From: an uncultured virus (IMG/VR IMGVR_UViG_3300021399_000148) | Lineage: Duplodnaviria; Heunggongvirae; Uroviricota; Caudoviricetes | Reading direction: 5' to 3' (one strand) | DNA length: 64,000 bases | IMG/VR virus record: IMGVR_UViG_3300021399_000148 | Shown here: one piece after another, positions 44,444 through 59,550 of the stretch | Numbering within the stretch: the stretch's first letter is position 1 | Layout: the number at the start of each line of letters is the position of its first letter | Notes under the pieces: generated by a model | The model's database searches: none | Seen by the model: only the letters and a program-made list of their open reading frames with translations | What the model was told of the DNA's origin: nothing | Position numbers and translations under genes: made by a program

Positions 44444-44721
44444 TACTTCTCTCCTTTGGTTGCGGCCTTCAGCAGCTTATCCAAATTTCTTCTTTGCGTT
44501 CTGTTCAATTCCACAACCTTTTCAATGACTTCTTCAATCAACTTTTCGGCTGGCCGCGCCTCTACATTCAACTTCTCTTTCTCTTCTCCCTTATCTATCT
44601 CTTCATAAATCTTAACCCCAAGAATCTTACAAATCCCCATAAATTCCTGTGGTTTCAATTTACAAATCCTCTCTACAATTCTTTTCTGTCCTTTACTAAT
44701 TTTCCTCTCATCTCTATCCAT
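44443..44721 (-). CDS. Small basic hypothetical protein
   Basis: Likely start ATG 44721 overlapping upstream stop. Confidence 0.5.
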   Translation of the reverse strand: MDRDERKISKGQKRIVERICKLKPQEFMGICKILGVKIYEEIDKGEEKEKLNVEARPAEKLIEEVIEKVVELNRTQRRNLDKLLKAATKGEK

Positions 44722-46018
44722 TTCTCTTTTTTCTTTCCTCCCTTTCACACCTTTTACACTTATTTTGAAATCCATCCTTACTTCTAGATTTCCTCACCCA
44801 ATTGCGCGCATCCAACAATAGGACCCGGCCGCAGCAAGTACATTTCTTAAAGTTCTCTGGGAAAAAACAATTTTCAATCGTCTCCCTATGAAGTTCCGCA
44901 GTCTCATTAATCTTCCCTATAATCTTTTGTCTAAAAATCGTACTAATATAATTTGCAGTATACCCCTTCCCGTATTTCCTATTAATAATCTCTGCAATTT
45001 CCGCGTTTTTAACCTTCTTTTCTTTAAGTCTTAGAACTTCTAGTTGTAAGTCTGTCAATTCTGCCATATCTTCATAAAATTCGAGCGTTCGTATTAAACC
45101 TTTTTGGTTGCTTTCAATTTTAGAGTCGGCTTCGTCTCTTTCAGCTTGGTCCATAATTTCAAATCTATATAGGTAAAGCTGGTAAACGCTTTCTAAATCT
45201 CGGAAGTCGAAAGAGGTTTCGAAATCTTCTTTTTTTCTCCAGACCAACTGACTAATTTGTTGTAGTTGTTGTTCGGAGAGTCGCGCGGGGTCGAAATTTT
45301 TGTCAAAAATTATGCGGCCAATTGTTGTGTCTGCGAGTCCTAACGGTAAAACCTCAATGTCGCAATCAAAAACGGTTGAGTCTTTGTGCGGCGCGCTTAA
45401 GGTCTGTCCAAATGCGATGGTTGACTGATAGGAATCTCTAATTGTGAATTGTTCACGACGCAAGTCTACGAGTTGGTGGCGCTTTTTCAAATAGGTATAT
45501 TGGTTGAGTTTTTGGCTGCGCGCACGTATACGTTCAACTTCTTCGGAAGAGAACTTTTTTAGAAGAGTTTCTCTTGGCGGTTTCTTTCTTTTCCCTATGC
45601 GCTCTTCGTAAAAGCAAATTTCTAAGTCGATTTCGTCAATGAGGCGCCAAAGATTTTCTAGGGCCTCTTTAACGCAGTCTGGTGCATTTGCGCGGGCCTC
45701 GTTTCGGTCGAAGACAACCCGCGGTTTCTTGTAAACGGTGGCTTCGTCCAACCCTCTAACGTAAATGTGAGAAGCGGAAGTTGATTCGAGGACTGCTTCG
45801 AGTGAGTCGGGGGAGTTTTCTTCTTTACTCCATTTTGTTTCGAGATTGAGGTCTGAGCCAATTGCGGTGCCTGTTTCGTCTTTGCCCCAAAGTAGATAAT
45901 TTGCGATTGTTGTTGCCTCTTGTGGGGTAAGCGTATCAAATTGCGTTATATATCTATTAATAAAGTCAATGCGTTCTTTAGCAGACTCTAATGTAAAATC
46001 TAGTTTTAATCGATTCAT
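44714..46018 (-). CDS. Putative transcription regulator (sigma-region-4-like HTH plus C-terminal Zn finger) heading the late operon
   Basis: LTDLQLEVLRLK...NAEIAEIIN...NYIS HTH; CxCC...CxxC; own promoter. Confidence 0.55.
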   Translation of the reverse strand: MNRLKLDFTLESAKERIDFINRYITQFDTLTPQEATTIANYLLWGKDETGTAIGSDLNLETKWSKEENSPDSLEAVLESTSASHIYVRGLDEATVYKKPRVVFDRNEARANAPDCVKEALENLWRLIDEIDLEICFYEERIGKRKKPPRETLLKKFSSEEVERIRARSQKLNQYTYLKKRHQLVDLRREQFTIRDSYQSTIAFGQTLSAPHKDSTVFDCDIEVLPLGLADTTIGRIIFDKNFDPARLSEQQLQQISQLVWRKKEDFETSFDFRDLESVYQLYLYRFEIMDQAERDEADSKIESNQKGLIRTLEFYEDMAELTDLQLEVLRLKEKKVKNAEIAEIINRKYGKGYTANYISTIFRQKIIGKINETAELHRETIENCFFPENFKKCTCCGRVLLLDARNWVRKSRSKDGFQNKCKRCEREERKKRNG

Positions 46019-46066: not shown

Positions 46067-46100
46067 ATTTCGTGGATTGATTTTATAGATTGAGGTTCAA

Positions 46101-46196
46101 TTTTTGATTTCGTGGATATTTTGATTTTTGATTTCGTGGATATTTTGATTTTTGATTTCGTGGATATTTTGATTTTTGATTTCGTGGATATTTTGA
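46101..46196. repeat. Four perfect tandem 24-bp repeats
   Basis: (TTTTTGATTTCGTGGATATTTTGA)x4, partial copy at 46067. Confidence 0.95.
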
Positions 46197-46628: not shown

Positions 46629-47084
46629 TTAAATCTCCCATGATGTCCAGTTAACGTATGCTATCAACTCTCCATCTAACACTATATGATGAAAGTCTCT
46701 TTCAAATCCTTCTTCATTATCTACATAATCAAACAGTGCGTCAATTGCTTCTTGATTGTTCATTTCTCTATAGATTTCTTTTCCGCCTTCTTCAAAACCG
46801 ATGAAATTTTTGAAAGTAATGTGGATTACCTTATCAGTGATACCATGTTTGAAGAAGTCAACATATGCATCATCATTCTTTTCGACTTCTGCCATAAGTC
46901 GGAAAAGTTTATCTTTCTTTTCAATTCTCTCATTCATTCTATTGACTGAGATTTTCTCCAAGGTCTTTTCCAATTCAGAAAAGACTTCTTCCCATTCTTC
47001 TTCAGTCATGTTGTCGATATAGTCGTTGACCATAGCGTCAAACTGTTCTGTTATATCCATTTCGAAGTACTTTCTATCTGTCAT
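46629..47084 (-). CDS. Highly acidic hypothetical protein, paralog B
   Basis: SD GAGGAGAGGA; N-terminal ~40 aa shared with 47163..47558. Confidence 0.75.
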   Translation of the reverse strand: MTDRKYFEMDITEQFDAMVNDYIDNMTEEEWEEVFSELEKTLEKISVNRMNERIEKKDKLFRLMAEVEKNDDAYVDFFKHGITDKVIHITFKNFIGFEEGGKEIYREMNNQEAIDALFDYVDNEEGFERDFHHIVLDGELIAYVNWTSWEI

Positions 47085-47120: not shown

Positions 47121-47151
47121 CGTGCGGTCATTGTGAGGGAATGACCGCACG
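47121..47151. other. 12-bp stem hairpin between acidic paralogs
   Basis: CGTGCGGTCATT-GTGAGGG-AATGACCGCACG. Confidence 0.7.
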
Positions 47152-47162
47152 TTGCTTTGTTC

Positions 47163-47558
47163 TTAATATGTAATCATCCCAACTATGGGTGATATAATTA
47201 AATTCTTACAGATGAAGAGATAACTTCCAAGTGCTTTCTCTTCTTCTTCTTCGTTAGCATAGACATATCTTTCCGCCGCATCCCAGAAACTTTCCTTTTC
47301 TCGTTGTGTCCAATCTGCCATTCTTTTCTCGAGAATATCATAGGCTTCCAGTGCTTCATCATGGGTATAACTACCATCCCACGCTTTTACTTCCTCTGCG
47401 GTCAAATCTGTTCTTCTGAGCCAATCAGTTTTTGCCGTTTCGTCCAATTCGGCAAGAACATCTTCCCATTCCTCTTCGCTCAGATTGCTCATGTAGTCAT
47501 TTACCATAGTGTCAAACTCTTCAATTGCATCCATCTCGAAATATCTTCTGTTTTCCAT
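47163..47558 (-). CDS. Highly acidic hypothetical protein, paralog A
   Basis: SD GAGGGG before ATG 47558 (MENRRYFEMD). Confidence 0.75.
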   Translation of the reverse strand: MENRRYFEMDAIEEFDTMVNDYMSNLSEEEWEDVLAELDETAKTDWLRRTDLTAEEVKAWDGSYTHDEALEAYDILEKRMADWTQREKESFWDAAERYVYANEEEEEKALGSYLFICKNLIISPIVGMITY

Positions 47559-47618
47559 TGTTCCCCTCTTCTTTCTCCGTCTGCTGACGGTTAACATTGT
47601 TTTGTTCTGACACTTAAG

Positions 47619-47647
47619 ATTGTAAAGGAAATGAAAACGAAAATCAA
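47619..47647 (-). promoter_or_regulatory. Promoter for acidic pair
   Basis: TTGATT-17-TACAAT on the minus strand. Confidence 0.65.
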
Positions 47648-47849
47648 GACTTTTTTTATCAACTTAATGATATTTTTTTTATTACATTATATATATAAAT
47701 GTTTTCCCCGGTTTTTCGTTATTCCCGGCTTTTCGTTCTCATAATACTAAAGTATGACTAACATTAAAAAAGTCGCTTAAATCGGCGATTTTTGCCCTTC
47801 TCGCATGAATTTATGTTTATTCATGCCGTTTTTTAGCGATTGAAAAAAA

Positions 47850-48380
47850 TCGAACGACATTCGACAATATATCTATTTTTCGATTTGAGCGATTGAGTTA
47901 AACTTTTAACAAAGTCAACCGTTATGTTCTTTGTATGCAAATGTATATAATGCATAAATATACATGGGCGAAAAAAGAACATACGTTCGCAAACAAACAT
48001 ACGTTCCTCTTCATCGCTTTAATGCGTTAACGCGTTAACTTAATAAAGTATTGTATACAGTATGCACGTTTGAGTTAGTTCAATCTAACTAACTATTGAC
48101 AGAATTGTCAGACAATTCAAAAGATTATGTAATGTATACAATACACAGTACACACTTTAATATATTAAAGCGTTAACGCTTTACACTGATGAAGTGCGTC
48201 CGAGTTAGTTCAATCTAACTAACTATAAACTGAATCTTTTGAATTGTCTGACAATTCAGAATATTGTGTAGTGTATACAGTACGCAGTACACACTTCACC
48301 ACAGTAAAGCGTTAACGCGCTAACGCGCTAATACTTTAATACTGGAAAGCTATAAAGCTTTAAAGCTCTAAAGCGCTAAA
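47850..48380. promoter_or_regulatory. Dense array of host transcription-factor-like operator boxes
   Basis: Spo0A-like TTCGACA 47860; Rex-like 47895; ArgR-like 47950; LexA 47976 and 47994; CTTYA-N6-RAAG 48155, 48179, 48294, 48334, 48358; TGTATACA 48052, 48133, 48272; AGTTAG-N5-CTAACT 48073, 48203; CodY-like 48103, 48242. Confidence 0.7.
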
Positions 48381-48462
48381 GAATTGTTTTTAAAAAAATA
48401 CATTGACAAGAAGCCTGAGAAGTGATAGAATAGAGTTAGAAAAGGAAAGGAGAGAAAAAGCC

Positions 48463-48927
48463 ATGAAGCTGAGCACTTTTTGTACACTTGTTAAATTTTA
48501 CAAGTCTCGTTCGTTTACACATAGCTACATTTTCGGTATCCTGTTTAAAGGAAACCTGTATATGATTATCACCGATGATTCGAGTTTTGGTCAGCTGCTG
48601 AAGCTGGACAAGGCAAGCCGGGGAGCTGGCTACAGCCTGCGTTTTCGTCCGAATCGTCAGCAGAAAAGCCTGCTGATGGGCATGGAAACAATTTGTCTCT
48701 GCTCGGCTGAGATGTTCAAAACGCTCTGTGCTGAGAGCAAGTATAACAAAGGCGAAGTATTCGAAAAGCTCGTAACTGAGTACTTCGGTCAGACTTGGGA
48801 AAAGGACAACGTTCCGTTCACAGAAGATGGAGACGTCACGGTTGACGGCGTAGCCTATCAAATCAAGTTTGAACAGGCAACTTTCATCACTGAAAAGCAG
48901 ATGCTGAGAATGAGAGCAGAGGGCTAA
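48463..48927 (+). CDS. Hypothetical protein with possible PD-(D/E)xK nuclease-like motif
   Basis: GEVFEKLV...GDV...YQIKF; SD AAGGAG; start ATG 48463. Confidence 0.5.
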   Translation: MKLSTFCTLVKFYKSRSFTHSYIFGILFKGNLYMIITDDSSFGQLLKLDKASRGAGYSLRFRPNRQQKSLLMGMETICLCSAEMFKTLCAESKYNKGEVFEKLVTEYFGQTWEKDNVPFTEDGDVTVDGVAYQIKFEQATFITEKQMLRMRAEG

Positions 48928-49016
48928 TCCCTCGCTCCATTCAATAAAGTTAAAAATAGGGGTTGACAAAACAAGCTACAAGTGCTATACTAATAATAGA
49001 AAGAGAGGTAAGAAAA

Positions 49017-49241
49017 ATGCTGAGACTGAGAAATGGAGAAAGAGTGTTCACCGTCAACAAGACCGCATTCGTTAAGAACTGGCTGTTCGATGATTGGAAC
49101 ACTGGAGACAAGTTCTTCGTGAGAGCTATGGATGAAAAGACAGCTTTCGAAATTGCGGAAGCCAACTACGATAACGTAAAAGGTTACGGATGGTTCGGCG
49201 ATAACGAAGCCGAAAGAATGGGACTGCCCTTCGTAGAATAG
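49017..49241 (+). CDS. Hypothetical early protein
   Basis: Own promoter and SD GAGGT. Confidence 0.65.
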   Translation: MLRLRNGERVFTVNKTAFVKNWLFDDWNTGDKFFVRAMDEKTAFEIAEANYDNVKGYGWFGDNEAERMGLPFVE

Positions 49242-49340
49242 GGCGGTTTTATTTTGCCCGGCCCTCTTCAAAAAAAGTGTTGACAAACTTTGAAATTTGT
49301 GATATACTATATTTAGAAAAGGAAAGAGAGGAAAAGAAAA

Positions 49341-49784
49341 ATGACAAAGACAATTTACTTCGATATGGATGGAACAATTGCTAATCTGTATGGTGTTGAC
49401 GGTTGGTTGGATATGTTGATTGCGAATGATGAAACACCATATACAATCGCTAAACCACTTGTTAAAATGAATGTACTGGCAAGGGTTTTGAATAATCTGA
49501 TTCGTAAAGGTTGGACGGTTGGAGTAATTAGTTGGTTGGCTAAAAATTCCAATTCTGAGTATGATGAAAAGGTAACCAATGCAAAAATGAATTGGTTGAA
49601 TACTCATTTAAAAAGTGTGAAGTTTGATGAAATCCATATTGTTCCATATGGCACACCAAAAGAAAAGATTGCACTCAATCCGAACGGGATTCTGTTTGAC
49701 GATGAAGAACAGAACAGAAACAATTGGTACGGTACTGCGTATGACGTGGATGATATTATTGGCACATTGAAAGCGATTGCATAA
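49341..49784 (+). CDS. HAD-superfamily 5'-nucleotidase-like phosphatase
   Basis: YFDMDGT motif I, K, ILFDD motif IV. Confidence 0.75.
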   Translation: MTKTIYFDMDGTIANLYGVDGWLDMLIANDETPYTIAKPLVKMNVLARVLNNLIRKGWTVGVISWLAKNSNSEYDEKVTNAKMNWLNTHLKSVKFDEIHIVPYGTPKEKIALNPNGILFDDEEQNRNNWYGTAYDVDDIIGTLKAIA

Positions 49785-49856
49785 ATAATTTTTAAAAAGG
49801 GGTTGACAAATTGATATAAGTATGATATTATATATATAGAAAGAGAGGTAAGGGAA

Positions 49857-49940
49857 ATGGAGATTATTAAAGGAATTGCTTTTGTAACTGTATTATTTAT
49901 CGCTTTTGGACTTTGTGGATATGTAGAGGTTTTTTGTTAG
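49857..49940 (+). CDS. 27-aa membrane peptide
   Basis: Own promoter, SD, MEIIKGIAFVTVLFIAFGLCGYVEVFC. Confidence 0.5.
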   Translation: MEIIKGIAFVTVLFIAFGLCGYVEVFC

Positions 49941-49955
49941 AAGGGAGATAAAACA

Positions 49956-50096
49956 ATGACGATTAAGGAATTGAAGGATTTACTGGATAAGTTCAATGAT
50001 GATGATGTGGTTAAGATTAATGATAATGGTTGGGCGGAAGATATAACGCATATATATCGCAGTCCGTTTACTGGTGAAGTTGTTATCTACGATTAA
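49956..50096 (+). CDS. 46-aa hypothetical protein
   Basis: SD AAGGGAG; MTIKELKDLL. Confidence 0.55.
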   Translation: MTIKELKDLLDKFNDDDVVKINDNGWAEDITHIYRSPFTGEVVIYD

Positions 50097-50119
50097 AGAA
50101 CAGAAAATTCTGTTCTTTT

Positions 50120-50362
50120 TTTTCTCCGAAAATCTCCCGAAACTTCCTGTTAAAATTTTCACAATGCGCCGGCATCCTAAAATTCTTTCAGAATTTTCCG
50201 AAAATTACGCGTTCAATTGATGTTCTTGAAAAAATTCTCCTAAAACTTCCAAAAACTTCCTAAAACTCAAAAGCCTTCCAAAAATTCTCCTAAAATTTTT
50301 GGAAAATTCTCTTTTCAAATTTTAACTTCCTAAAATTAAAATTTGAAATTTTCCTAAAATTC
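50120..50362. repeat. Array of short TTCC(T/A/G)AAAA repeats
   Basis: More than 10 copies, several at ~10-bp spacing, running into the 50343 promoter. Confidence 0.75.
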
Positions 50363-50411
50363 TGTTATAATATTTTTAGAAAAAAGAGAAAAAGAAAAAG
50401 AGGTAAGAAAA

Positions 50412-50768
50412 ATGACAAAGAAAGATTTCCTAAAAAGAATTTTGGAAAATAAAGTAACTGAAGAAGTGGTAGAATTTGCTAGAAAAGAATTGGAAAAAGA
50501 GGAACAAAAAGATTTAAAAAGACTTTCAAATCCGACAACTCAGCAAAAAGAAAACGCAAAAATTGCCGAAAAAATTTTAGAATTTTTACAAGATGGAGAA
50601 AAAAGAAGAATTGACGAAATTCTTTCTTTCCTTAATATCAAGGAAATGACAAGACAAAGACTTTCTGCAATTTGTACAAATTTGGTAAAAGAAGGAAAAA
50701 TTTTTACAGAAAAAATCCGAGTTAAAAACGTAGGGACGCGCGCGGTGTACTTCATTTCTAAAAAATAG
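50412..50768 (+). CDS. Winged-helix family protein, paralog 1
   Basis: MTKKDF helical N-terminus plus wHTH; aligns with 52469, 54485, 58110. Confidence 0.7.
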   Translation: MTKKDFLKRILENKVTEEVVEFARKELEKEEQKDLKRLSNPTTQQKENAKIAEKILEFLQDGEKRRIDEILSFLNIKEMTRQRLSAICTNLVKEGKIFTEKIRVKNVGTRAVYFISKK

Positions 50769-50909
50769 TTTGCCGGGCCGCAATTGTCAGAAAATTTTGA
50801 ATTATTTTAATTTTACAAATTTTTCTAAAGGGGTTGACTTCCTAAAAAATATATGATAAAATAATTATAGAAAATAAAGAGAAGAGAAAAATCGAAAGGT
50901 AGGTACACT

Positions 50910-51260
50910 ATGGCAGTTTCCAGAAAAGTTGAGCGTGAAATTCTGAGAAATGATTTTCTTGGAAAAGTTATTGAATCTTTTGAACAGATTGGCGAAGATG
51001 TACTGAGAGTAAAATCCAATGAAGTGGCAATTCCCGTAGTTGGTTGTGAGGGAAACGAAGATTGGGTTGTGATTACTGTAAAAGTTCCGACTGGAGCGAA
51101 TAAGGGTCTCGAACCGTATGACGGTTACGAGATGGCAGAAGAATACGAAATGAAGTTGAAAGAGAAAGAACGCAAAGCAAAAGAAAAAGCAATTGCAAAG
51201 GAAAAGAAGATTCAGAGAGATAAGGAAATTAGAGAAAAGAAAAAGTTAAAAGAAAATTGA
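50910..51260 (+). CDS. Hypothetical protein, duplicate copy 1 (MAVSRKVERE)
   Basis: Strongly similar to 56915..57268. Confidence 0.75.
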   Translation: MAVSRKVEREILRNDFLGKVIESFEQIGEDVLRVKSNEVAIPVVGCEGNEDWVVITVKVPTGANKGLEPYDGYEMAEEYEMKLKEKERKAKEKAIAKEKKIQRDKEIREKKKLKEN

Positions 51261-51328
51261 AAAAAGGGGTTGACAAAAGTCAACCCTTTTGATATAATAT
51301 AGACAAGATAAAGAAAGGAGATAAGACA

Positions 51329-51427
51329 ATGGGAATGGGAATGGCAATAATTTTCGGCGCGGCGTTAGGGTTAATATTAGGACAATTACTGTATGGAGAC
51401 GACATTTTCAAGAAAAGAAAATTTTAA
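51329..51427 (+). CDS. 32-aa membrane peptide
   Basis: Own promoter, SD AAGGAG; hydrophobic helix with basic tail. Confidence 0.5.
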   Translation: MGMGMAIIFGAALGLILGQLLYGDDIFKKRKF

Positions 51428-51492
51428 AAAAGGTTGACAAGCGAATCTTTTTCTGATATAATATATATAGAATAAAGAGAGGAGATAAAGCA

Positions 51493-51690
51493 ATGACAGC
51501 AATAACAGAAAAACTGAATGGAATGACAATTGGCAGACTGAAAGAAATCATTTCCAATATTGATGATAACGTAGAAATTGACATTTGGGATAGTTTGGGT
51601 CTTGTCACAAATATCGAAATTGAAGTTACAAGAATGTTACTTGGAGCAACCGATGTTTGCATTAATATTGATGGAGTTTATCCGTATTAG
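51493..51690 (+). CDS. Hypothetical early protein
   Basis: Own promoter and SD GAGGAG. Confidence 0.65.
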   Translation: MTAITEKLNGMTIGRLKEIISNIDDNVEIDIWDSLGLVTNIEIEVTRMLLGATDVCINIDGVYPY

Positions 51691-51703
51691 AAAGGGGGAT
51701 AAA

Positions 51704-51922
51704 ATGGATATTACTAAACTGACCACTGAGGAACTTGAAAATCTCAGAAAAGGAATTGACTGCGAAATCAGAGAAAGAAGAAAAACAAGGCAACTGACAG
51801 CAATCAATCTTTTCAAGGAAGCATTCAAGGCACTTAAAAACGAACACGTTGATATTTATTTCGACTGTGGCGATGATGAATATCTTGTTCTTTTTGAGGA
51901 TTTCCACTTTGAAGAGGCTTAA
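51704..51922 (+). CDS. Hypothetical early protein
   Basis: SD AAGGGGG before ATG 51704. Confidence 0.6.
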   Translation: MDITKLTTEELENLRKGIDCEIRERRKTRQLTAINLFKEAFKALKNEHVDIYFDCGDDEYLVLFEDFHFEEA

Positions 51923-51941
51923 AAAGTCTCTTTTTTTTATA

Positions 51942-51955
51942 CGAACATACGTTCG
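51942..51955. promoter_or_regulatory. LexA (Cheo/SOS) box
   Basis: CGAACATACGTTCG, perfect match to CGAACRNRYGTTCG. Confidence 0.8.
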
Positions 51956-52061
51956 GACGCGCCGGGCGCCTCTTCATCGCGTTAAAGTATAAAAGTAATG
52001 TATACAGTATTCTTTTAAAATAAGTCTTGACTTTTTTAGAAATTTCGTTTATAATATATAT

Positions 52062-52143
52062 AGAAAGTGAAGAGAGGAGAAGAAAATAAACGGTATATGG
52101 GGAACACCATCCCATTCCTCTCAATCCGCGCGGATTCACTTTC
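52062..52143 (+). ncRNA. Candidate structured small RNA
   Basis: Own promoter 52027; nested stems; no well-placed SD. Confidence 0.45.
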
Positions 52144-52273
52144 AAATCAATTGTCAAGAGGAGAGATAGTAGGTTTAATAAAGGGTACGCGTTCAATTTT
52201 ATAGCCCATCTCAAAAAATAAAAAAATCCTAAAAACCTCTTGACAAATTTAAAAGTCTATGCTATAATATGAT

Positions 52274-52370
52274 TGTCCTCAAGAGATAGGACATAAAGAA
52301 TTTCTCTTCGGCAAGGGCGTACCCGTTATCTAAGCCTTTCTCAATGGCACTACAAAGTGCCATTGAGAAA
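52274..52370 (+). ncRNA. Candidate pseudoknot-containing small RNA/leader
   Basis: Own promoter 52240; TGTCCT/AGGACA plus AAGAGA/TCTCTT; 15-bp hairpin. Confidence 0.5.
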
Positions 52371-52468
52371 AATAAAAAATTTAAAAAAAGGTATTGACAA
52401 ACTTAAAAAACTATGATATAATGTAAATGTAAGATAAAGGAAAACAAAAGTAAAAGAAAGGAAACACT

Positions 52469-52795
52469 ATGACTCAGAGAGAATTTTTCAACGCAGTTAT
52501 CGCAGAAACTCAGAACACCGCAATCAAAGAGTTTGCAACGAACGCACTTCACAAGATGGATGAACGCAACGCAAACCGTTCTGCAAAACCGTCTAAGACT
52601 CAGATTGAGAACGCACCGCTCATTGCTCAGATTAAAGAGATTCTGACCACTGAACCGATGCTTGCAAGTGAAATTGCAGAAAAGGTTGGAATCTCAACCG
52701 CCAAGGCTTCGGCACTCGTCAAGAAAGTCGAGGGTGTACACGTTACCGATGTAAAGGTAAAGGGAAAGGGTGCGAGAAAGGCATATTCTCTTTAA
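52469..52795 (+). CDS. Winged-helix family protein, paralog 2
   Basis: MTQREF...ASEIAEKVGISTAKASAL. Confidence 0.75.
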   Translation: MTQREFFNAVIAETQNTAIKEFATNALHKMDERNANRSAKPSKTQIENAPLIAQIKEILTTEPMLASEIAEKVGISTAKASALVKKVEGVHVTDVKVKGKGARKAYSL

Positions 52796-52835
52796 TAAAT
52801 AGGGTTTGCGGTCATCCCTTAAAACCGCATTATAT

Positions 52836-52919
52836 GGGATTGTATCTTAAATGGCAAAGTATCTGACCTAAATGCGTGCATATCAGACATTGTGGGTTCG
52901 AATCCCACCAATCCCACCA
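52836..52919 (+). tRNA. tRNA-like RNA with expanded 16-nt anticodon loop (identity undetermined)
   Basis: Acceptor GGGATTG/CAATCCC-A-CCA; T arm GTGGG-TTCGAAT-CCCAC; D loop with GG; stem TCTGA/TCAGA. Confidence 0.75.
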
Positions 52920-52950
52920 CAAATTGACACATTGTTACCTCCTTTTCTTA

Positions 52951-52982
52951 AAGAGAACACCGCAAGTCGGTGTTCTTTTTTT
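52951..52982 (+). terminator. Intrinsic terminator
   Basis: AGAACACCG-CAAGT-CGGTGTTCT-TTTTTT. Confidence 0.8.
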
Positions 52983-52992
52983 CTAGAAAAGA

Positions 52993-53038
52993 CGAACATA
53001 CGTTCGCGGCCGGCCAAATGCAGACGAACATACGTTCC
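52993..53038. promoter_or_regulatory. Two LexA boxes
   Basis: CGAACATACGTTCG 52993 and CGAACATACGTTCC 53025. Confidence 0.8.
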
Positions 53039-53145
53039 CGAAATGCGCCGGGCGCGATTGTATACAATATATTTTTAATTTAGGGGTTGACATTCCTCTT
53101 CATATGTGGTAATATTAATACAGAAAGAAGAAAGGAGGATAACAA

Positions 53146-53304
53146 ATGAACAGAACAAGAAAATTGCATTACGTAGTTAATGGATACGGAGAAATAGTCG
53201 GGCGTTTTACCGATAGATACAGTGCGATTGCTTATATAAGATATTATCATTCTATTTGCCCTAAAGAGTGGGTATTTCTTAGAACGATAACGATAAAAGG
53301 GTAG
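53146..53304 (+). CDS. 52-aa hypothetical protein
   Basis: Own promoter, SD AAGGAGG. Confidence 0.6.
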   Translation: MNRTRKLHYVVNGYGEIVGRFTDRYSAIAYIRYYHSICPKEWVFLRTITIKG

Positions 53305-53431
53305 TATAAATACACAAGAAGACTTATTAATAGATACAAATAAAATTTAAAATTAATTTTTAAAAAGGGGTTGACATTCAACCCTTTTTATGATATTATA
53401 ATTATAGAGAAAAGGAAAGGAGATAGGAACA

Positions 53432-53596
53432 ATGACAAAGATGGAAATGGTAAACAGAATGATAATTCTCGGATGCATCAAGGAATCTGACAGAGCAAAC
53501 ATGATGCGTAGAAGTAAGACAAGAATCACTGAAATCTATATCAGAATCGTTCCCGTCAGACTTGAATGGATTGAAGAAAATAAGAAAAAGGGTTGA
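53432..53596 (+). CDS. 54-aa hypothetical protein
   Basis: Own promoter, SD AAGGAG; stop overlaps next -35. Confidence 0.6.
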   Translation: MTKMEMVNRMIILGCIKESDRANMMRRSKTRITEIYIRIVPVRLEWIEENKKKG

Positions 53597-53652
53597 CAAC
53601 CCTCTTCAATTATGTTATACTATAGATACAATAAAGAAAGGGAGATAACATA

Positions 53653-53916
53653 ATGGAAATGACTAGAATGCAGAGTATATGGAAGGAACTTAACTACATT
53701 GTACTTATCGCACTGATTGCAGGTCAGTGTGTTGTAAAAGCAGACTTTTTAATCGGTCAGTTTGTCTATCTGTTCGCCAATGTAATGTCTTTCACTCGTT
53801 GCTTTGTTCTTGATAGACCAATTGCAGACAAAATCAAAGATGGATGTTGTTTAGGCATCACGACTGGATTAATCGCAATGGTAATTCTTGAAAGTTATGG
53901 GATTCATATTGTATAG
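53653..53916 (+). CDS. Small membrane protein
   Basis: Three hydrophobic segments; own promoter. Confidence 0.65.
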   Translation: MEMTRMQSIWKELNYIVLIALIAGQCVVKADFLIGQFVYLFANVMSFTRCFVLDRPIADKIKDGCCLGITTGLIAMVILESYGIHIV

Positions 53917-53936
53917 GAAAAAGAAGGGAGGAAGAA

Positions 53937-54152
53937 ATGCCTATCACAATTATTGGAAATATTGAAATTAATTTAAATGAAGTCATAGATATTAAATCTA
54001 TTAAAGATAACATTGTAGATATGGTAGTAGACCAAATAGACTATGACATCTATAAAGAAATTATAGAATACAGTCCAAATTCTTATCAGGAACTTATTAA
54101 AGATTGTATGCTTTATATAGCACAATATCTTATCGAAGAATACGAGGGGTAA
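53937..54152 (+). CDS. Small acidic hypothetical protein
   Basis: SD GGGAGG. Confidence 0.65.
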   Translation: MPITIIGNIEINLNEVIDIKSIKDNIVDMVVDQIDYDIYKEIIEYSPNSYQELIKDCMLYIAQYLIEEYEG

Positions 54153-54484
54153 TACCCCTCTTTTAGTTCGCGCCGGCCCGCGAATTGTCAGAATATTCTG
54201 TGTTTACGAAAACGATTAAGACTTCATCGAAAACTATTGACTTTCCTCTTCATTTGTAGTAATATATACTTGTCAAGGGGAGATAAAAGAGTAAATGAAG
54301 AAACATGAGAAATCTGATAACAGAGTAATTGGAAAACTCCCCTTGACAAAATTCAAAAAAAATTTAAAAAAGGTCTTGACAAACTTAAAAAAGTTTGATA
54401 TAATAAAGACAAGATAAAGGAAAGGGAGACAGGAACTCCCAAAAGTAAAAATAGGTTGCGACTTACCGCAAGAAAGGAAAAGTT

Positions 54485-54817
54485 ATGACTAAGAGAGAAT
54501 TTATGCAGATGGTTATCGATGGTGTTACTTCTGAGGAAATGGTTGCATTCGCTACCGCAGAAATCACAAAGATGGATGCTCGTAACGCAAAGAGGGCAGA
54601 GAAGGCGAAGGAAGTCAAGCCCGAAGATGTTGCACTGGATGCAAGAATCCATGAGGTTCTGACTTCTGACTATCAGACCGCAACTGAAATCGCTAATCAG
54701 ATTGAGGGTGTTACTCTCGCAAAGGTTGCGGCTCGTCTGAGAAAGATGGATGACATCTCGGTTATCGATGGCGAGTCCCTCGGAATGGGTAAGAAGAAGG
54801 TCTACGCTCTCGCATGA
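54485..54817 (+). CDS. Winged-helix family protein, paralog 3
   Basis: MTKREF...ATEIANQIEGVTLAKV. Confidence 0.75.
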   Translation: MTKREFMQMVIDGVTSEEMVAFATAEITKMDARNAKRAEKAKEVKPEDVALDARIHEVLTSDYQTATEIANQIEGVTLAKVAARLRKMDDISVIDGESLGMGKKKVYALA

Positions 54818-54867
54818 CCTCTTCAATGGGGAACGGACGAAAGTCCGTTCTCTTTTTGACCCAAAAA

Positions 54868-54881
54868 AGAACATACGTTCG
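54868..54881. promoter_or_regulatory. LexA box
   Basis: AGAACATACGTTCG. Confidence 0.75.
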
Positions 54882-54990
54882 CGGGCCGGACCGCGCCGGG
54901 CCGATTGTTAAAAAATTAACTTTTAAAAAGGGGTTGACATTTCTTTTGATTTGTGGTAATATTAATATAGAAAGAGGAAAGGAGAAAAAA

Positions 54991-55206
54991 ATGAAAGTCA
55001 GAGGTTATAAGGATTTTAATGGTTGTCCTAAGTGTGGCGGATATGACTATGAAAGTTGGATTGATGGATTCGATTTTCTTGATTTAGGTGAGCAATACAT
55101 AGCCGTACATCATGTTGTTACTTGTAACTGTGGACACCATTACAGATTTGATGAGATTTATAAATATGAATGTGACTTAATAAAAGAAAGAGAGGTTATC
55201 AAATGA
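54991..55206 (+). CDS. Small Zn-ribbon protein
   Basis: CPKCG...CNCGH; SD AAGGAG before ATG 54991. Confidence 0.65.
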   Translation: MKVRGYKDFNGCPKCGGYDYESWIDGFDFLDLGEQYIAVHHVVTCNCGHHYRFDEIYKYECDLIKEREVIK

Positions 55207-55400
55207 AAATCACAACGAACCATCACGAACACAGATTCGTTCCTGTAGAAAATACAATCCACAACGTGATTAAAATAATGGATATGTTGGATTGTACCTA
55301 TCTCTACAACTCTAAAACTGGTGAAGTAATCAGAATTGAAGATTTATGTAAAACGGTTGATGTTCTGTCAAAATTTTGTCACGTAGATACGATGAATTAA
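55203..55400 (+). CDS. Hypothetical protein
   Basis: SD GAGGT; coupled to upstream gene. Confidence 0.6.
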   Translation: MKITTNHHEHRFVPVENTIHNVIKIMDMLDCTYLYNSKTGEVIRIEDLCKTVDVLSKFCHVDTMN

Positions 55401-55484
55401 TTTTAAAAAAGGGGTTGACAAATCCCTTTTTCCATGCTATAATTAACTTGTAAGTTAAAAAGATACAGAAAGGAAGTAACAACA

Positions 55485-56153
55485 ATGGTAAAAATTGACC
55501 GCAGAAAATCTTATTACATGGTATTCGATACGGAAACTTCTAACGGACTTGATGACCCAATTGTCTACGATATTGGATTCGCAATTGTAGATAAAAAAGG
55601 CAATGTGTATGAAGCGAAAAGTTTCGTAATCTATGAAACTTTCTGCAAGATGAAAGACTTAATGCAGAGTGCATACTATGCGGATAAAATCCCTAACTAT
55701 ATTGAACAGATTGAAAATGGTGAAAGAAAAATTGTTCGATTCGCAACCGCAAAAAAGATTATGCGTGAATTGTGCGAAAAGTATAATGTCAAGGCAATTA
55801 TGGCACACAATGCGAGATTCGACTACAAAGCAACCGCAACCACTCAGCGTTACTTAACAAAATCTAAATACCGTTTCTTCCTTCCTTATGGTATTGCACT
55901 ATGGGATACTCTGAAAATGGCAAGAGACACAATTTGCAAACAGACCATGTATAAAGAATGGGCAAGAAAAAACGGATATGTAACAAAAAACAATCAAGTA
56001 AAAGCAACCGCAGAAATCCTTTACAGATACATCAGCGGAAACAATGACTTCATCGAATCCCATACTGGATTAGAAGATGTATTGATTGAGAAAGAAATCT
56101 TCGCCCACTGCATGAGACAACACAAATCCATGAGAAAAGAGTGCTTCGCTTGA
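55485..56153 (+). CDS. DEDDh 3'-5' exonuclease (DnaQ-like)
   Basis: FDTET, AHNARFD, HTGLED. Confidence 0.85.
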   Translation: MVKIDRRKSYYMVFDTETSNGLDDPIVYDIGFAIVDKKGNVYEAKSFVIYETFCKMKDLMQSAYYADKIPNYIEQIENGERKIVRFATAKKIMRELCEKYNVKAIMAHNARFDYKATATTQRYLTKSKYRFFLPYGIALWDTLKMARDTICKQTMYKEWARKNGYVTKNNQVKATAEILYRYISGNNDFIESHTGLEDVLIEKEIFAHCMRQHKSMRKECFA

Positions 56154-56278
56154 GCACTCTTTTTTGAGCATGCTCAGTGCGGCCGGGCCAAATGTATACA
56201 ATATTTTTTTCAAAAAACTATTGACAAATTTATTTATTTGGTATATAATATCTATAGTAAAAGAAAGGAGAAAATACA

Positions 56279-56431
56279 ATGACTATTACAAAAGAATTAA
56301 ATGACTATTTAAAAGAAGTGATTCGCAATAGTTATAAATGTGCGCATTGTACCTTTAATCATTCGGGAATTTGTTTCTTTGCTTATGAATGTATTAAAAA
56401 AGATTTTCAAAATTTTACCGAAGAAGATTGA
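56279..56431 (+). CDS. 50-aa Cys-rich protein
   Basis: Own promoter, SD AAGGAG; CxxC..C..C. Confidence 0.55.
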   Translation: MTITKELNDYLKEVIRNSYKCAHCTFNHSGICFFAYECIKKDFQNFTEED

Positions 56432-56500
56432 AAAATCTCTTGACAACTTCCGCAATTGGGTGTATAATATCTATAGAAAATAAAGAAAGGAGAAACAAAA

Positions 56501-56839
56501 ATGGGTGTGAGTTATTTAATGTCAATTGGTTTTGGAGTTATTGTTGACGAAGAGAAAGCCGAAACCATAGAAAAATACGTTAAGGAAAAATTTTCCGCAA
56601 ATAAGGCAGACCTCTTCATAGGAGAGTATTTAACTCCTATTAATGCACGGACAAGTGAAGATTATTTTTTAGGGGTTATAAAAGACTTGAGCTATTCTGA
56701 TAGAGTGAAGATTGATAATAATCTTTGTGATATGAGAGCAGTAGTAAAATTCTTGCACATGATTACTGAATATGAAATCATTCAGTTTCTTTCTAAAAAA
56801 GATGAACCAGAATTTTATTTATTAAACTTTTGTTATTAG
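56501..56839 (+). CDS. Hypothetical early protein
   Basis: Own promoter, SD AAGGAG. Confidence 0.7.
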   Translation: MGVSYLMSIGFGVIVDEEKAETIEKYVKEKFSANKADLFIGEYLTPINARTSEDYFLGVIKDLSYSDRVKIDNNLCDMRAVVKFLHMITEYEIIQFLSKKDEPEFYLLNFCY

Positions 56840-56914
56840 GGGTTGACAAACCAATTCAAACATGATATACTATAGGTACAATAAAGAAAGACAGATGAAG
56901 AAAGGTAGGTAATT

Positions 56915-57268
56915 ATGGCAGTATCTCGCAAGGTAGAACGTGAAATGATTAGAACAAACTTTCTCAATCTCGTAGCGGATTATCTCCACTCGGTTGATGA
57001 AGAGGTTTTGCTCGTCAAGTCTAATGAAATCGCAATCCCTGTCGTGGGTTGTGAGGGCAATGAGGATTTTCTTGTAATCACTTTCAAAGTTCCCACTGGT
57101 GCAAACAAGGGGATGGAACCCTATGACGGATATGCAGAAGCCGAAAACTTTGAATTCAAGCAGATGGAAAAGGCGATGAAAATGCAAGAAAATGCCAAAA
57201 AGAAGGCAAAGAAAATTGCTCGTGATGAGGAAATCCGCAAGGCGAAAGCCAATCAGAAAAAAGAGTAA
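56915..57268 (+). CDS. Hypothetical protein, duplicate copy 2 (MAVSRKVERE)
   Basis: Strongly similar to 50910..51260. Confidence 0.75.
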   Translation: MAVSRKVEREMIRTNFLNLVADYLHSVDEEVLLVKSNEIAIPVVGCEGNEDFLVITFKVPTGANKGMEPYDGYAEAENFEFKQMEKAMKMQENAKKKAKKIARDEEIRKAKANQKKE

Positions 57269-57271
57269 CTC

Positions 57272-57301
57272 AAAGGCGGTCGGATTGACCGCCGTTTTTT
57301 A
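57272..57301 (+). terminator. Intrinsic terminator
   Basis: GGCGGTC-GGATT-GACCGCC-GTTTTTT. Confidence 0.75.
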
Positions 57302-57367
57302 TTGTCAACTGCGCAAACAATAAAAGTATTATGTCAACCGCGCGCCGGCGTAAACGCGCCGGCATAA

Positions 57368-57588
57368 CGAACATATGTTCGCAGGTCCGCCGGCCGAAAT
57401 TGTCAGAATATTTCAAATTTTAAGACTTCTTAAAATTCTAATTTCCCTATTGACTTCCCATTAATAGTGTGGTATAATTAATTGGGGGAACTTAAATTGT
57501 CAGAATTTTCTGAATTGTCTGAGTTTTCTGATGTATACAGTATCCCGTATTTTGTATACAGTATACGCGCGGGACGAACGTATGTTCG
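57368..57588. promoter_or_regulatory. Operator cassette: LexA x2, CodY-like x2, TGTATACA x2 around promoter 57450
   Basis: CGAACATATGTTCG 57368, CGAACGTATGTTCG 57575, AATTGTCAGAATATT 57398, AATTGTCAGAATTTT 57495, TGTATACA 57532 and 57553. Confidence 0.75.
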
Positions 57589-57614
57589 CGGTGTGTCAAA
57601 TTTTACGGGTCGTA

Positions 57615-57723
57615 GGGAGCTGCAAAGCGAGCTGCGTTTGGTCAGCCAGGGAGCTGCGTCGCGCGGCTGTGAGGGAGCTGCGTTTACGCGCGGGCTAAGG
57701 AGCTGCATTTTCGAGGGAGCTGC
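57615..57723. repeat. Cluster of (GG)GAGCTGC direct repeats
   Basis: Six copies at 57615, 57629, 57649, 57673, 57699, 57715; related copies at 57829, 57886, 57944. Confidence 0.85.
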
Positions 57724-58109
57724 GCCCCAGAAATTTGACAAAAAATTTCAAATTTTAAATAAACTTTCCTGAAAATTTGACTTTTAATTTCAAACTGTGA
57801 TATAATATAAAAAAACAATTAAATTTTTGCAGCTGCAAAACTTGATTTTTAAAGTCAAATTTTAGCCGCGCAGATAATCCAAAAGAAGCTGCAATTTGAG
57901 AACTTCTGAAAATTCTAGTATACTATATATAGAAAGTGAGAGAGGGAGCTGCAAAAAATCCTCTCTTGTGCGGGAAGAGGGAAAAGAAAATTTGAAAACC
58001 TCAGAAAATCCTGCTATAATAATTATAGAAAGTGAGAGAAGAAAGTAACTCTTCTCAAAAGAAATGTGACTGGCGCCCACTGCCCTAGTGTGGGAGAAAG
58101 AAGGATTCT

Positions 58110-58466
58110 ATGATGACCAAGATTGATGCTTACAAGGCTGTTGTTGCTGGTGAAGTGACCGAGGAAGTTAAGGAGAAGTTCGCAGAGATGATTGCGGCTT
58201 ACGAAACTGAGGCTGGAAAGCGTAGAGAGCGCGCAGCCGAGAAGAGAGCCGAGAAGAGAGCTGTTGATGCGGGCCTGGAAGCTGCAATTCTGGAGGCTCT
58301 GGGAGAGGAGCCGATGTCTGCCTCTCAGATTATGGAGGCTGTAGAGGGCATCGCAACGCCGCAGAAGGCTACCGTGCTGGTCAAGAGACTGGTTGAGGAC
58401 GGAAAGGCTGAGCAGGTCGACATGAAGATCGAGAAGAGAAAGGTCAAGGGCTACGTTGTAGCTTGA
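58110..58466 (+). CDS. Winged-helix family protein, paralog 4
   Basis: PMSASQIMEAV...PQKATVLVKRLVEDGK. Confidence 0.75.
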   Translation: MMTKIDAYKAVVAGEVTEEVKEKFAEMIAAYETEAGKRRERAAEKRAEKRAVDAGLEAAILEALGEEPMSASQIMEAVEGIATPQKATVLVKRLVEDGKAEQVDMKIEKRKVKGYVVA

Positions 58467-58483
58467 TCTCATCAACTAGACGG

Positions 58484-58512
58484 AAAAAAGAGCCGAAAGG
58501 CTCTTTTTTCTT
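58484..58512. terminator. Intrinsic terminator
   Basis: AAAAAAGAGCC-GAAA-GGCTCTTTTTT. Confidence 0.85.
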
Positions 58513-59550
58513 TTGTATACGTATACGTATACGTATATATGTACGTATAATATGTATGTTTTGTATGCGGAAATTTGACTTTTAAAGTCATTTTTTAAAA
58601 AAATTTTTTTAAAAATTTGATTGGGTTCGTTGGTTGTGGCACCCACCTACTACCACTTATTATAACCTACTACCACTCATTGTAACCTACTTCCTTTTAT
58701 TCAAACCTATTCAAACCTATTCCGAACCCTATATATATACATATAGAAACTGTCGCTTTATCCACGATAGGGAGGGTCTCTTGGTACTTGAAAGGTACGC
58801 GGACCTTGCACATACACGTTCGGAACCTCAAATTTCACAATTTTAGTATACGTATTACGTATACGTTGGGTAGTTGTTGGGGTAGGCGAAGTAAAGAGTT
58901 AAATGGGGTGGGGCGGTTTAAGAACTTATACGTATACGTATTATGTATACGTAGAATGAGTAGGTGGAGCTGGTGAGGGGCGGCGGAGTTAAGAAAGACA
59001 GAACTATATATATGTACATATTATATGTACGTATTATATGTACATACTATATATATGTATATATGTAGTGGCGGTATACTATATATGTAGTAGTTAATTG
59101 TAGTGGCTGTTCTGTATACGTTTTGTGTGGCTTTTCAGCCGTTGGCTAAAAGCCCACACAAAGTTTTTTTGGCCTTCGGCCTAGAGCAAAAAAAAATTTT
59201 TTTTAAAAAAAATTTTTATTTATAGTACGTATATATGTACATACTATATGTATATATTATATGTACATATTATATATATTTCTCTTACGTTTTTATAATA
59301 AGTAGTTTTTAGTAAAAGTCTCTACTAACTTTTTCAGACGCAGATTTCAAAAAAATTTTTCTATTGTAGAGGGCGGCCGAGCGTAAGTTGCAGTGGTCCT
59401 GCAAAATTTTTGGAAAATTTTTAGCCTGAAAAATCTTGGAAAATTTTCAACCCATAAAGAATCTTGGAAAATTTCTCGGCCTGTGAAATCCTAGAAAATT
59501 TTCAACTGCGCGCAGTACCCGAAAAGAAAAATCTTGGAAAATTTCCCAAT
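58513..59550. repeat. Repeat/palindrome-rich non-coding region (candidate origin or genome end)
   Basis: GTATAC/TATATGTAC runs, A/T tracts, CTACTACCAC repeats, TTGGAAAATT repeats. Confidence 0.6.

Follow-up and report, generated by a model that had tools for sequence, protein, structure and literature searches.

A gap between divergent early promoters of an uncultured phage carries candidate operators for several host repressors and may act as a decoy

We analysed a 64,000-nt stretch of DNA from an uncultured virus of the Caudoviricetes (IMG/VR record IMGVR_UViG_3300021399_000148; the whole stretch is called the window), and in particular a 904-bp gap free of open reading frames (ORFs) at 47559–48462, between the minus-strand gene that ends at 47558 and the plus-strand start at 48463. 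Judged by sequence, this gap holds about 20 consensus-grade copies of host-repressor operators, namely at least nine of HisR type, two each of DtxR-family, CodY and LexA type and one of Rex type, together with three copies of the palindrome TGTATACA. We put the probability that the gap is a decoy, titrating host repressors during phage DNA replication, at about 0.4. A preliminary description had read 500 bp of the gap (47850–48380) as an operator library, tiled with sites for many host regulators, and at sequence level this reading appears largely right. Every motif listed there was found in place, the stretch has no ORF of at least 60 amino acids (aa) within 47598–48402, and it contains a duplicated unit whose paired parts are 87% and 85% identical. 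Five of the eight regulator assignments appear supported, whereas that to GntR is weak and those to ArgR and Spo0A found no support. The 500-bp array itself stands, but the phenomenon is not limited to it and spans the whole early region (47.9–57.6 kb). As to function, a decoy would come ahead of a sensor of host state.

The most frequent sites in the gap are of HisR type. HisR is a TrpR-family histidine repressor with the Firmicutes consensus cacTTTAnnnnnnTAAAgtg, a 20-bp palindrome cacTTTA-N6-TAAAgtg (PMC9413887). For all regulators, consensus strings with allowed mismatches replaced the RegPrecise weight matrices, and the background for the gap was given by 100 block shuffles of its 904 bp (47559–48462), or 200 for the Spo0A 7-mer. 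With up to one mismatch, nine HisR cores were present in the gap (48017–48381) against 0.09 expected, a count equalled in 0/100 shuffles, and with up to two mismatches there were three full 20-mers (48153, 48177, 48292) against 0.00 expected. Across 86 related loci, 96 HisR-type sites were found against 5.3 expected, including 18 in locus L040 and 12 in L044. De novo counting of palindromes in the phage loci recovered CACTTTA-N6-TAAAGTG, equal to the published consensus, and the HisR assignment of the preliminary description is upheld by this agreement and by the nine cores. Tandem CTTTAAAG units create overlapping HisR cores each 8 bp and thereby account for the 8-bp period seen in the gap. 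A phage ribbon-helix-helix protein was considered for the 8-bp arrays and rejected, as no such family was found in 26 small early ORFs and overlapping HisR cores fit better. That TrpR dimers bind in tandem at a spacing of 8 bp is general background, for which the literature searched gave no supporting text.

The phage HisR-type sites are not at a his operon, hisXYZ or hisR, but in an untranscribed gap before a gene without a known family. In three gut Clostridia genomes, a polar amino-acid ABC binding-protein gene has a HisR-type palindrome on its promoter, which fits the HisR-controlled hisXYZ transporter (PMC9413887). Overall, the 20-mer was not enriched in the 14 bacterial genomes scanned (6 occurrences against 11 for the reversed control), of which only the three transporter-promoter sites are informative. 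Histidine promotes binding of Ruminococcus gnavus HisR to its own site, and three candidate HisR sites are predicted in the R. gnavus genome (PMC9413887).

The palindrome AGTTAGTT-N6-AACTAACT, hereafter the DtxR-type palindrome, is present as two exact copies in the gap (48073, 48203), against 0.00 expected in the shuffles with up to two mismatches. Across the 86 related loci it was found 33 times against 0.7 expected, with 10 sites in L030 and 12 in L055. A scan of bacterial genomes gave at least 120 stretches containing it, 80 of which were examined. In 21 of these 80, TTGAC[AT] immediately preceded the palindrome, whose 6-nt spacer resembles a -10 element. Among the matches listed, the ORF downstream of TTGACA and the palindrome encoded FeoA in 14 of 17 cases, a ZIP metal transporter in one and TetR regulators in two; a DtxR-family repressor was encoded in 13 of the 14 FeoA genomes, and in all five loci examined the palindrome separated feoA from a divergent DtxR-family gene. 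Because of this position between feoA and the divergent gene, it appears well founded to assign the palindrome, as a putative operator, to an iron-responsive repressor of the DtxR family in gut Clostridia and relatives; the assignment is stronger than in the preliminary description, which had counted it among the weaker ones. No published motif for it was found in the literature searched. The bacterial operator overlaps the feoA -10, whereas the phage copies occur without that promoter and those genes.

For the remaining regulators we used the published consensi of CIRCE, CodY and Clostridium Rex (PMC8336468) and the Gram-positive LexA consensus GAAC-N4-GTTC (PMC11442139). Two CodY sites with up to two mismatches were found in the gap against 0.05 expected (0/100 shuffles equal this), and hence CodY, like HisR and the DtxR-type palindrome, stands above the shuffled controls within the gap alone. 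Over the early region (47559–59500), LexA sites numbered four exact CGAAC-N4-GTTCG and eight with up to one mismatch (0.27 expected), and with up to two mismatches there were 10 CodY sites against 0.49 and four Rex sites against 0.59 in shuffles. No enrichment of LexA, CodY or Rex was seen in the other 47.5 kb of the window (1–47558), and none of cre, Fur, CtsR, ArgR or CIRCE in this window. All seven GAAC-N4-GTTC sites in the 64 kb lie inside 47977–57587, most of them just past a terminator, with the next early promoter 60–95 bp downstream. The same terminator–promoter junctions also contain CodY-like boxes and TGTATACA palindromes, and operator types recur in early-gene gaps throughout 47.9–57.6 kb. 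GC-rich palindromic runs (GCGCCGG...CGC type; Table 1) directly adjoin LexA boxes in this otherwise AT-rich region.

Related loci were collected by protein-anchored searches (34 IMG/VR loci and 51 metagenome loci); complete genomes of relatives, four in number, are 115–137 kb long. In the 34 loci, with up to one mismatch, LexA sites numbered 107 against 5.0 expected and Rex sites 95 against 0.7. CodY sites numbered 14 against 0.3, 11 of the 14 being in one 8-kb fragment, and CIRCE six against 0, with exact 9+9 arms and differing spacers, in four phages. The cre, Fur and CtsR controls were flat. The de novo counting also yielded TTGTTAA-N4-TTAACAA, CGAACAT/ATGTTCG, AATTTTC-N-GAAAATT, AGCACTC-N9-GAGTGCT and GTTAGTT-N6-AACTAAC, and among these are palindromes equal in sequence to the published Clostridium Rex, CodY and CIRCE (PMC8336468) and Gram-positive LexA (PMC11442139) consensi. 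The family consensus for LexA, from 133 unique sites, was CGAACATATGTTCG, with C/G flanks in 71%; that for Rex, from 92 unique sites, was TTGTTAA-N4-TTAACAA, with T/A flanks in 84%. In both cases the flanks lie outside the search pattern. In the four complete genomes, LexA-type sites clustered as 15/16 in 11 kb, 13/13 in 8 kb, 10/10 in 6 kb and 8/10 in 11 kb, and in one of them 12/12 Rex-type sites fell within the LexA-site stretch. The LexA, Rex and CodY assignments appear supported by enrichment, by confinement to early regions and by unsearched flanks that follow the published consensi.

Arrays of a single operator type were found in some related phages. In its counterpart of the divergent gap, L017 has 11 tandem exact Rex operators that repeat every 24 bp, L030 has five 26-bp DtxR-type repeats in tandem, and L032 has at least eight CodY boxes in 300 bp, where the CodY variant of the gap and exact boxes are both present. 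Three further loci (L025, L026, L028) carry the perfect Rex 16-mer core TGTTAAACTTTTAACA, with the same spacer as the Rex-like box of the window. The load per genome was 8–18 sites for LexA, 1–15 for Rex, 0–9 for HisR and 0–11 for the DtxR-type palindrome, and LexA sites were present in this window as in all four complete relatives. The exact CIRCE (HrcA) elements are at 4261 and 4695 in L014, 3535 and 3926 in L023, 4169 in L018 and 4664 in L005. In L014 and L023 the genes just downstream of them encode small acidic proteins similar to those at 46629–47084 and 47163–47558 of the window, and two of the elements are embedded in longer hairpins.

Bacterial chromosomes gave a much lower baseline. 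In 14 gut Clostridia-type genomes (~29 Mb) there were 12 exact CGAAC-N4-GTTCG sites and one exact Rex 18-mer, and a whole Clostridium genome has three CIRCE elements and 10 CodY boxes with up to one mismatch (PMC8336468). Against the three HisR sites predicted for all of R. gnavus stand at least nine HisR cores in this one gap. The density of sites in the phages far exceeds that of the chromosomes, which favours a decoy.

Three assignments of the preliminary description fared less well. GntR, proposed for TGTATACA, agrees with a modest enrichment (36 against 15.1), but the palindrome had only two hits in the 14 bacterial genomes, one of them flanked by genes for an aconitase-family protein and a GntR/FCD regulator, and these are insufficient for an assignment. 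For ArgR, one site with up to one mismatch lies in the gap and 20/100 shuffles equal it; the related loci had five exact sites against 2.3 expected and 64 with up to one mismatch against 90. The Spo0A assignment concerned a single 7-mer, equalled in 20/200 shuffles, and the related loci had 27 such sites against 52 expected.

DNA-binding domains of LexA, Rex, CodY, HrcA, TrpR/HisR and DtxR were searched for in the four complete relatives and the scanned window ORFs, with sub-threshold hits only. Four winged-helix paralogues encoded in the early region match only generic Lrp/MarR-type domains, weakly. These paralogues were also considered as LexA, Rex or CodY look-alikes and rejected, the matches being generic apart from one sub-threshold CodY-HTH hit (E 0.0025); they may bind the palindromes that have no host assignment. 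Based on the site sequences, it is quite probable that host repressors bind the assigned sites, because unrelated phage proteins are unlikely to reproduce six host specificities, including CIRCE.

Identity with host-operator sequences, enrichment, confinement to the early region and the lack of phage homologues in the records searched are thus observed, and from them we tentatively propose a takeover of the host that would need no phage protein: a family of ruminant-gut phages with interchangeable, consensus-grade operator cassettes may drain host repressors from the chromosome. Each member would offer candidate LexA operators, as in all four complete relatives and the window, plus a varying set for Rex, CodY, HisR, DtxR-family repressors and HrcA. 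Host repressors would bind these sites and, as the phage genome multiplies, would be sequestered away from the chromosome. Regulons for making and taking up histidine, for importing ferrous iron, for amino-acid metabolism, for NAD+ regeneration and for the SOS response would then be derepressed without a phage protein, as would chaperones in relatives with CIRCE, and the induced regulons would feed virion production. NADH lowers Rex binding (PMC5355995) and CodY represses during growth (PMC5314169). In a replete, unstressed cell all of the assigned regulators sit on DNA as repressors, and their removal would raise supply functions; the phage NrdG is an Fe-S enzyme.

Sequestration would be the main effect because the sites exceed, in strength and in number, what regulation of one promoter calls for, because those of LexA and Rex type lie outside core promoters and because the dispersed ones follow terminators. 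In the window, dispersed sites after terminators occupy DNA unswept by RNA polymerase. Distances to promoters, in a subset of 47 of the 88 sources kept after an over-strict de-duplication, peaked at -90 to -110 for LexA sites and -70 to -90 for Rex sites, with few in -50 to +10. The duplicated unit of the gap is 190–330 bp away from its sole strong promoter. Site placement and copy number favour a sponge over a sensor, and arrays without a promoter per site (Rex in L017, DtxR-type in L030, CodY in L032) favour a decoy over ordinary control. The variation of the operator repertoire among relatives resembles that of accessory host-manipulation functions, which also favours a decoy.

The preliminary description had named a sensor as another possible function, and this is the strongest competitor, although we consider it rather unlikely. 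Bound host repressors would gate early transcription or replication of the phage by DNA damage, redox state, amino acids, histidine and iron, and in relatives by folding stress, much as in the Spo0A control of phi29 or the lytic deferment proposed for CtrA (PMC2731898, PMC9437464). Every assigned regulator does sense a physiological state, and the sites do lie at stereotyped distances upstream of early promoters, with a CodY-like box at about -84 from several of them (in the window at 54183 and 57398, and in L039, L040 and L044). Few LexA- and Rex-type sites, however, cover the -35, -10 and +1 positions where these repressors normally act, and a switch would need far fewer sites than the nine or more HisR boxes here or the 11 Rex operators in tandem. 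Nor is there a conserved pairing of gene and regulator, since the operators before the orthologous first early gene differ among relatives (HisR/LexA/CodY here, Rex/LexA/DtxR-type in L005 and neither set in L046). Neither a tyrosine integrase nor a serine recombinase was found in four of four complete relatives, and the family, being without integrase or resolvase there, is probably virulent. With repressors bound to DNA in a healthy, replete cell, a virulent phage using them as gates would be blocked in its best hosts.

Less likely still is that the sites serve phage-encoded DNA-binding proteins, for early shut-off or as replication-origin iterons or a partition site, their likeness to host operators being mimicry or coincidence. 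The winged-helix paralogues are encoded in the early region itself, the tandem dyad-symmetric 24–26-bp repeats resemble origin iterons, and TGTATACA and several other recurrent palindromes have no host assignment. A LexA homologue of phage GIL01 acts at its late promoter P3 (PMC6182141). The gap also coincides with the cumulative GC-skew minimum, but the skew turn is uninformative alone because gene orientation switches at the same place. The gap does contain direct repeats and, at 47650–47700, an AT-rich stretch; there is no adjacent initiator gene, and helicase and primase are 44 kb off. Against a phage-encoded binder, agreement with host consensi would be required of six unrelated specificities, among them CIRCE, whose 9+9 arms are exact in four phages although the spacers vary; no homologue of the LexA, Rex, CodY, HrcA, TrpR or DtxR domains was found in the four complete relatives or scanned window ORFs, the winged-helix paralogues have no specific resemblance to those domains, and dispersal over ~10 kb does not point to one origin.

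Passive baggage, that is, functionless host promoter–operator fragments that recombined into the phage and spread with duplicated cassettes, would suit the paralogous genes and similar terminator-to-promoter junctions of the early region and the mosaic exchange of a gene beside an identical gap, but is very improbable given that arms are conserved while spacers and flanks vary, that tandem amplification reaches 5–11 copies, that phage sites are nearer consensus than chromosomal ones and that the DtxR-type copies lack the bacterial feoA promoter context. Coating of incoming DNA by host proteins, a further suggestion of the preliminary description, is unlikely because the sites cluster within ~10 kb of 115–137-kb genomes.

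Several points weigh against a decoy. The fixed -84 position of CodY-like boxes and the stereotyped LexA and Rex positions could reflect a link with RNA polymerase or merely duplicated cassettes, and CodY-like matches avoid promoters less than LexA- and Rex-type ones, several lying between -30 and +50. Titration needs many genome copies and so would act only from mid-infection. Within the gap alone, the single LexA site (up to one mismatch) is equalled in 7/100 shuffles and the single Rex site (up to two mismatches) in 9/100, both borderline, and each of the two CodY-like sites departs from AATTTTCWGAAAATT at two symmetric positions (T>G, A>C). Site counts are inflated by paralogous cassettes and kin phages and are not independent events; the 14 baseline genomes are not known hosts; and the four winged-helix paralogues could bind some of the palindromes. 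The literature searched gave no precedent for an operator decoy in a phage.

Table 1. Sites and flanking features of the gap, with GC-rich runs of the early region, in window coordinates.
Feature	Position	Strand	Basis or remark
Predicted leftward sigma-70 promoter TTGATT-17-TACAAT	47619..47647	-	Consensus scan 9/12, weak match; left edge of gap
TTCGACA (Spo0A-type 7-mer)	47860		Sequence match
Rex-like box GAGTTAA-ACTT-TTAACAA	47895..47912		12/14 specified bases of Clostridium Rex operator
TGCAT-AAAT-ATACA (ArgR-type)	47951–47964		Sequence match
LexA (Cheo) box AGAACATACGTTCG	47976..47989		13/14; core GAAC-ATAC-GTTC at 47977–47988
Weaker LexA-like box CAAACATACGTTCC	47994..48007		11/14; one-mismatch core copy at 47995
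Five HisR-like units in 8-bp phase	48009..48048		Core matches at 48017, 48033
TGTATACA palindrome, copy 1 (possibly GntR-type)	48048..48063		Motif start 48052; one bacterial context
DtxR-family-type operator AGTTAGTT-CAATCT-AACTAACT, copy 1	48073..48094		AGTTAGTTCAATCTAACTAACT at 48073; feoA context in bacteria
CodY-like palindrome GAATTGTCAGACAATTC, copy 1	48102..48118		13/15 of consensus; GAATTGTCWGACAATTC at 48102
TGTATACA palindrome, copy 2	48129..48144		Motif start 48133
Two HisR-type 20-mers, CACTTTAATATATTAAAGCG and CGCTTTACACTGATGAAGTG, linked by GCGTTAACGC	48153..48196		Up to 2 mismatches to cacTTTA-N6-TAAAgtg
DtxR-family-type operator, copy 2	48203..48224		Identical to copy 1; AGTTAGTTCAATCTAACTAACT at 48203
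CodY-like palindrome, copy 2	48241..48257		Inverted with flank relative to copy 1; GAATTGTCWGACAATTC at 48241
TGTATACA palindrome, copy 3	48268..48283		Motif start 48272
HisR-type 20-mer (48292–48311), then ten units in 8-bp phase	48292..48381		Overlapping CTTTA-N6-TAAAG cores at 48334, 48350, 48358, 48366
Strong rightward early promoter TTGACA-17-TAGAAT, extended -10 TG	48403..48431	+	Consensus scan 11/12; right edge of gap
First rightward early gene	48463..48927	+	154 aa, no known family; relatives' orthologues behind equivalent operator-rich gaps
GC-rich palindromic runs	51954–51970, 53005–53015, 53045–53056, 54169–54182, 54880–54903, 57338–57350, 57380–57396		Sequence

The ~750 bp between the predicted divergent early promoters (47648–48402) are probably untranscribed (Table 1). 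The duplication within them, a unit of ~135 bp, consists of a 39-nt pair (87% identity, spacing 130 bp) and a 78-nt pair (85%, spacing 139 bp), and the CodY-like palindrome, together with 8 nt of flank, stands in opposite orientation in the two units (25 nt, 100% complementary). Three period-8 arrays were reported by Tandem Repeats Finder (48015–48039, 48305–48331, 48346–48381). Read in a single register, 48302–48381 forms 10 units of the form CNNTAAAG/CGTTAACG, and the linker GCGTTAACGC is found at 48024, 48170 and 48309. The gap is not an assembly artefact, since the independent metagenome contig L036 is identical across 48046–48480. In a near-identical strain (a contig of run X3) the gap is unchanged and 397 other letters replace 47163–47558, with the flanks kept (compared from 47135–47556); this is a mosaic exchange of an early gene beside an intact gap. 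One related contig is without 56 nt (seven units) of the 8-bp array, which at its low likeness is a hint only. The left part of the gap (47650–47890) has further repeats without assignment to any regulator, and Rfam gave no RNA family in the gap. A terminator-like hairpin with a T run lies at 47803–47835 (+), downstream of a weak promoter-like site (47591–47620) and of a hydrophobic 37-aa ORF (47631–47744, +). A small transcript may exist in this left part, where a segment (~47766–47800) is conserved in L044.

The window has ~35% G+C and is part of a large tailed phage. Replication genes occupy the plus strand at 1–21 kb (DnaB-like helicase, primase, PolIII-alpha-type polymerase, RecJ, NrdD/NrdG, dUTPase), and a minus-strand structural block follows at 21–44 kb (3560-aa tail protein, portal, large terminase), after which comes a sigma-factor-like gene (44714–46018). 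The first leftward gene at the gap (47163..47558, -) encodes a small acidic protein of 131 aa, a paralogue of that at 46629–47084, for which no Pfam or PHROGs family was found. On the other side, small plus-strand genes run in series from 48463 to ~59.5 kb, each preceded by a separate sigma-70 promoter that is close to consensus and has an extended -10. The phage is large and probably virulent, encodes its own replication genes and probably infects ruminant-gut Clostridia. Deposited phages gave no close relative for the gap or for 40–60 kb of the window, the 25-mer searched for had no exact match in IMG/VR, and the nearest record ends at ~47135, short of the gap.

Some features of the window lie apart from the operators. 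The early region is built of duplicated cassettes, with the winged-helix paralogues (~110 aa, 24–36% identical) at 50412–50768, 52469–52795, 54485–54817 and 58110–58466, two paralogues starting MAVSRKVERE at 50910–51260 and 56915–57268, and a promoter of its own before each duplicated early gene. Rfam places a tRNA between two early genes (52836–52916, +; 53 bits, above the gathering score), while ARAGORN found none in the window. Tandem repeats with periods of 6, 13, 20, 26 and 27 bp cluster at 58515–59504, the far end of the early region and a second orientation flip. Upstream of the promoter of the sigma-factor-like gene is a perfect 4 x 24-bp tandem repeat (46100–46196), with a similar cluster in L020 only; a DnaA reading of this repeat was rejected, its core TATCCAC being 7/9 of a DnaA box and the family-wide count 73 against 73, without enrichment. 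Between NrdD and NrdG, an ORF at 16013–16585 (+) gave a match to the formate/nitrite transporter family (PF01226, E 4e-16). The reductant of the anaerobic ribonucleotide reductase is formate, and this ORF may be a phage-borne supply gene.

Titration of a regulator by DNA has known forms: the datA locus titrates DnaA, and the FURTA titration assay uses the same sequestration principle. Synthetic decoy arrays in yeast are alike in that repeated high-affinity sites sequester a regulator and shift target expression (PMC3322331). Unlike the gap, all of these are chromosomal or engineered. Cluster A mycobacteriophages carry stoperators, operator-like sites that number in the dozens and are spread over the phage genome in short intergenic gaps; they are asymmetric, orientation-dependent and bound by the temperate phage's own repressor. 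The sites of the gap, in contrast, are palindromes matching host operators.

Co-option of a single host regulator by phages is established or proposed. The virulent Bacillus phages phi29 and Nf carry several Spo0A boxes in early and late control regions, with no need of a phage homologue (PMC2731898); this resembles the gap, except that one regulator is described there, its sites are associated with promoters and its binding suspends the lytic cycle (PMC9437464). The gap has at least five regulator types and up to ~20 sites, mostly outside core promoters, and some relatives have tandem arrays. GIL01 (gp7, gp6) likewise has Cheo-type LexA boxes on a Firmicutes phage and uses host LexA, but a few boxes are described there, within P1, a temperate phage's lysogenic promoter (PMC4551915, PMC6182141), whereas the present family has 8–18 LexA boxes per genome, upstream of many early promoters, and no integrase in the four complete relatives. 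In certain groups of alphaproteobacterial phages, comparative genomics found CtrA sites by which a lytic phage is proposed to read its host; there a single regulator acts at promoter sites, and binding and regulation were shown experimentally (PMC9437464). The present family differs in its several repressors and its arrays, and is known here from sequence alone. For a co-opted regulator to control transcription, its sites would be expected to overlap or abut phage promoters, which is not the placement of most LexA- and Rex-type sites. Single-regulator use by phages is thus known (LexA, Spo0A, CtrA), whereas a panel of several operators, arrayed and swapped among relatives, was not found in the literature searched, nor was any report of natural phage-borne multi-regulator operator arrays or decoys; subscription journals were outside that search, so this is not proof of absence.

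If the gap is a decoy, a virus would reprogramme its host via DNA sequence alone, with an effect that scales automatically with genome copy number. If it is a sensor, these phages would combine at least five physiological signals, a number well above that of any lytic phage described. In both cases the set of operators gives a culture-free clue to the host, as the Clostridium-type Rex box, the HisR sites and the feoA/DtxR operator point to gut Clostridia, and under a protein-free takeover the operator set would predict the host clade. For anaerobes that have been little studied, such phages may further serve as a natural catalogue of high-affinity operators.

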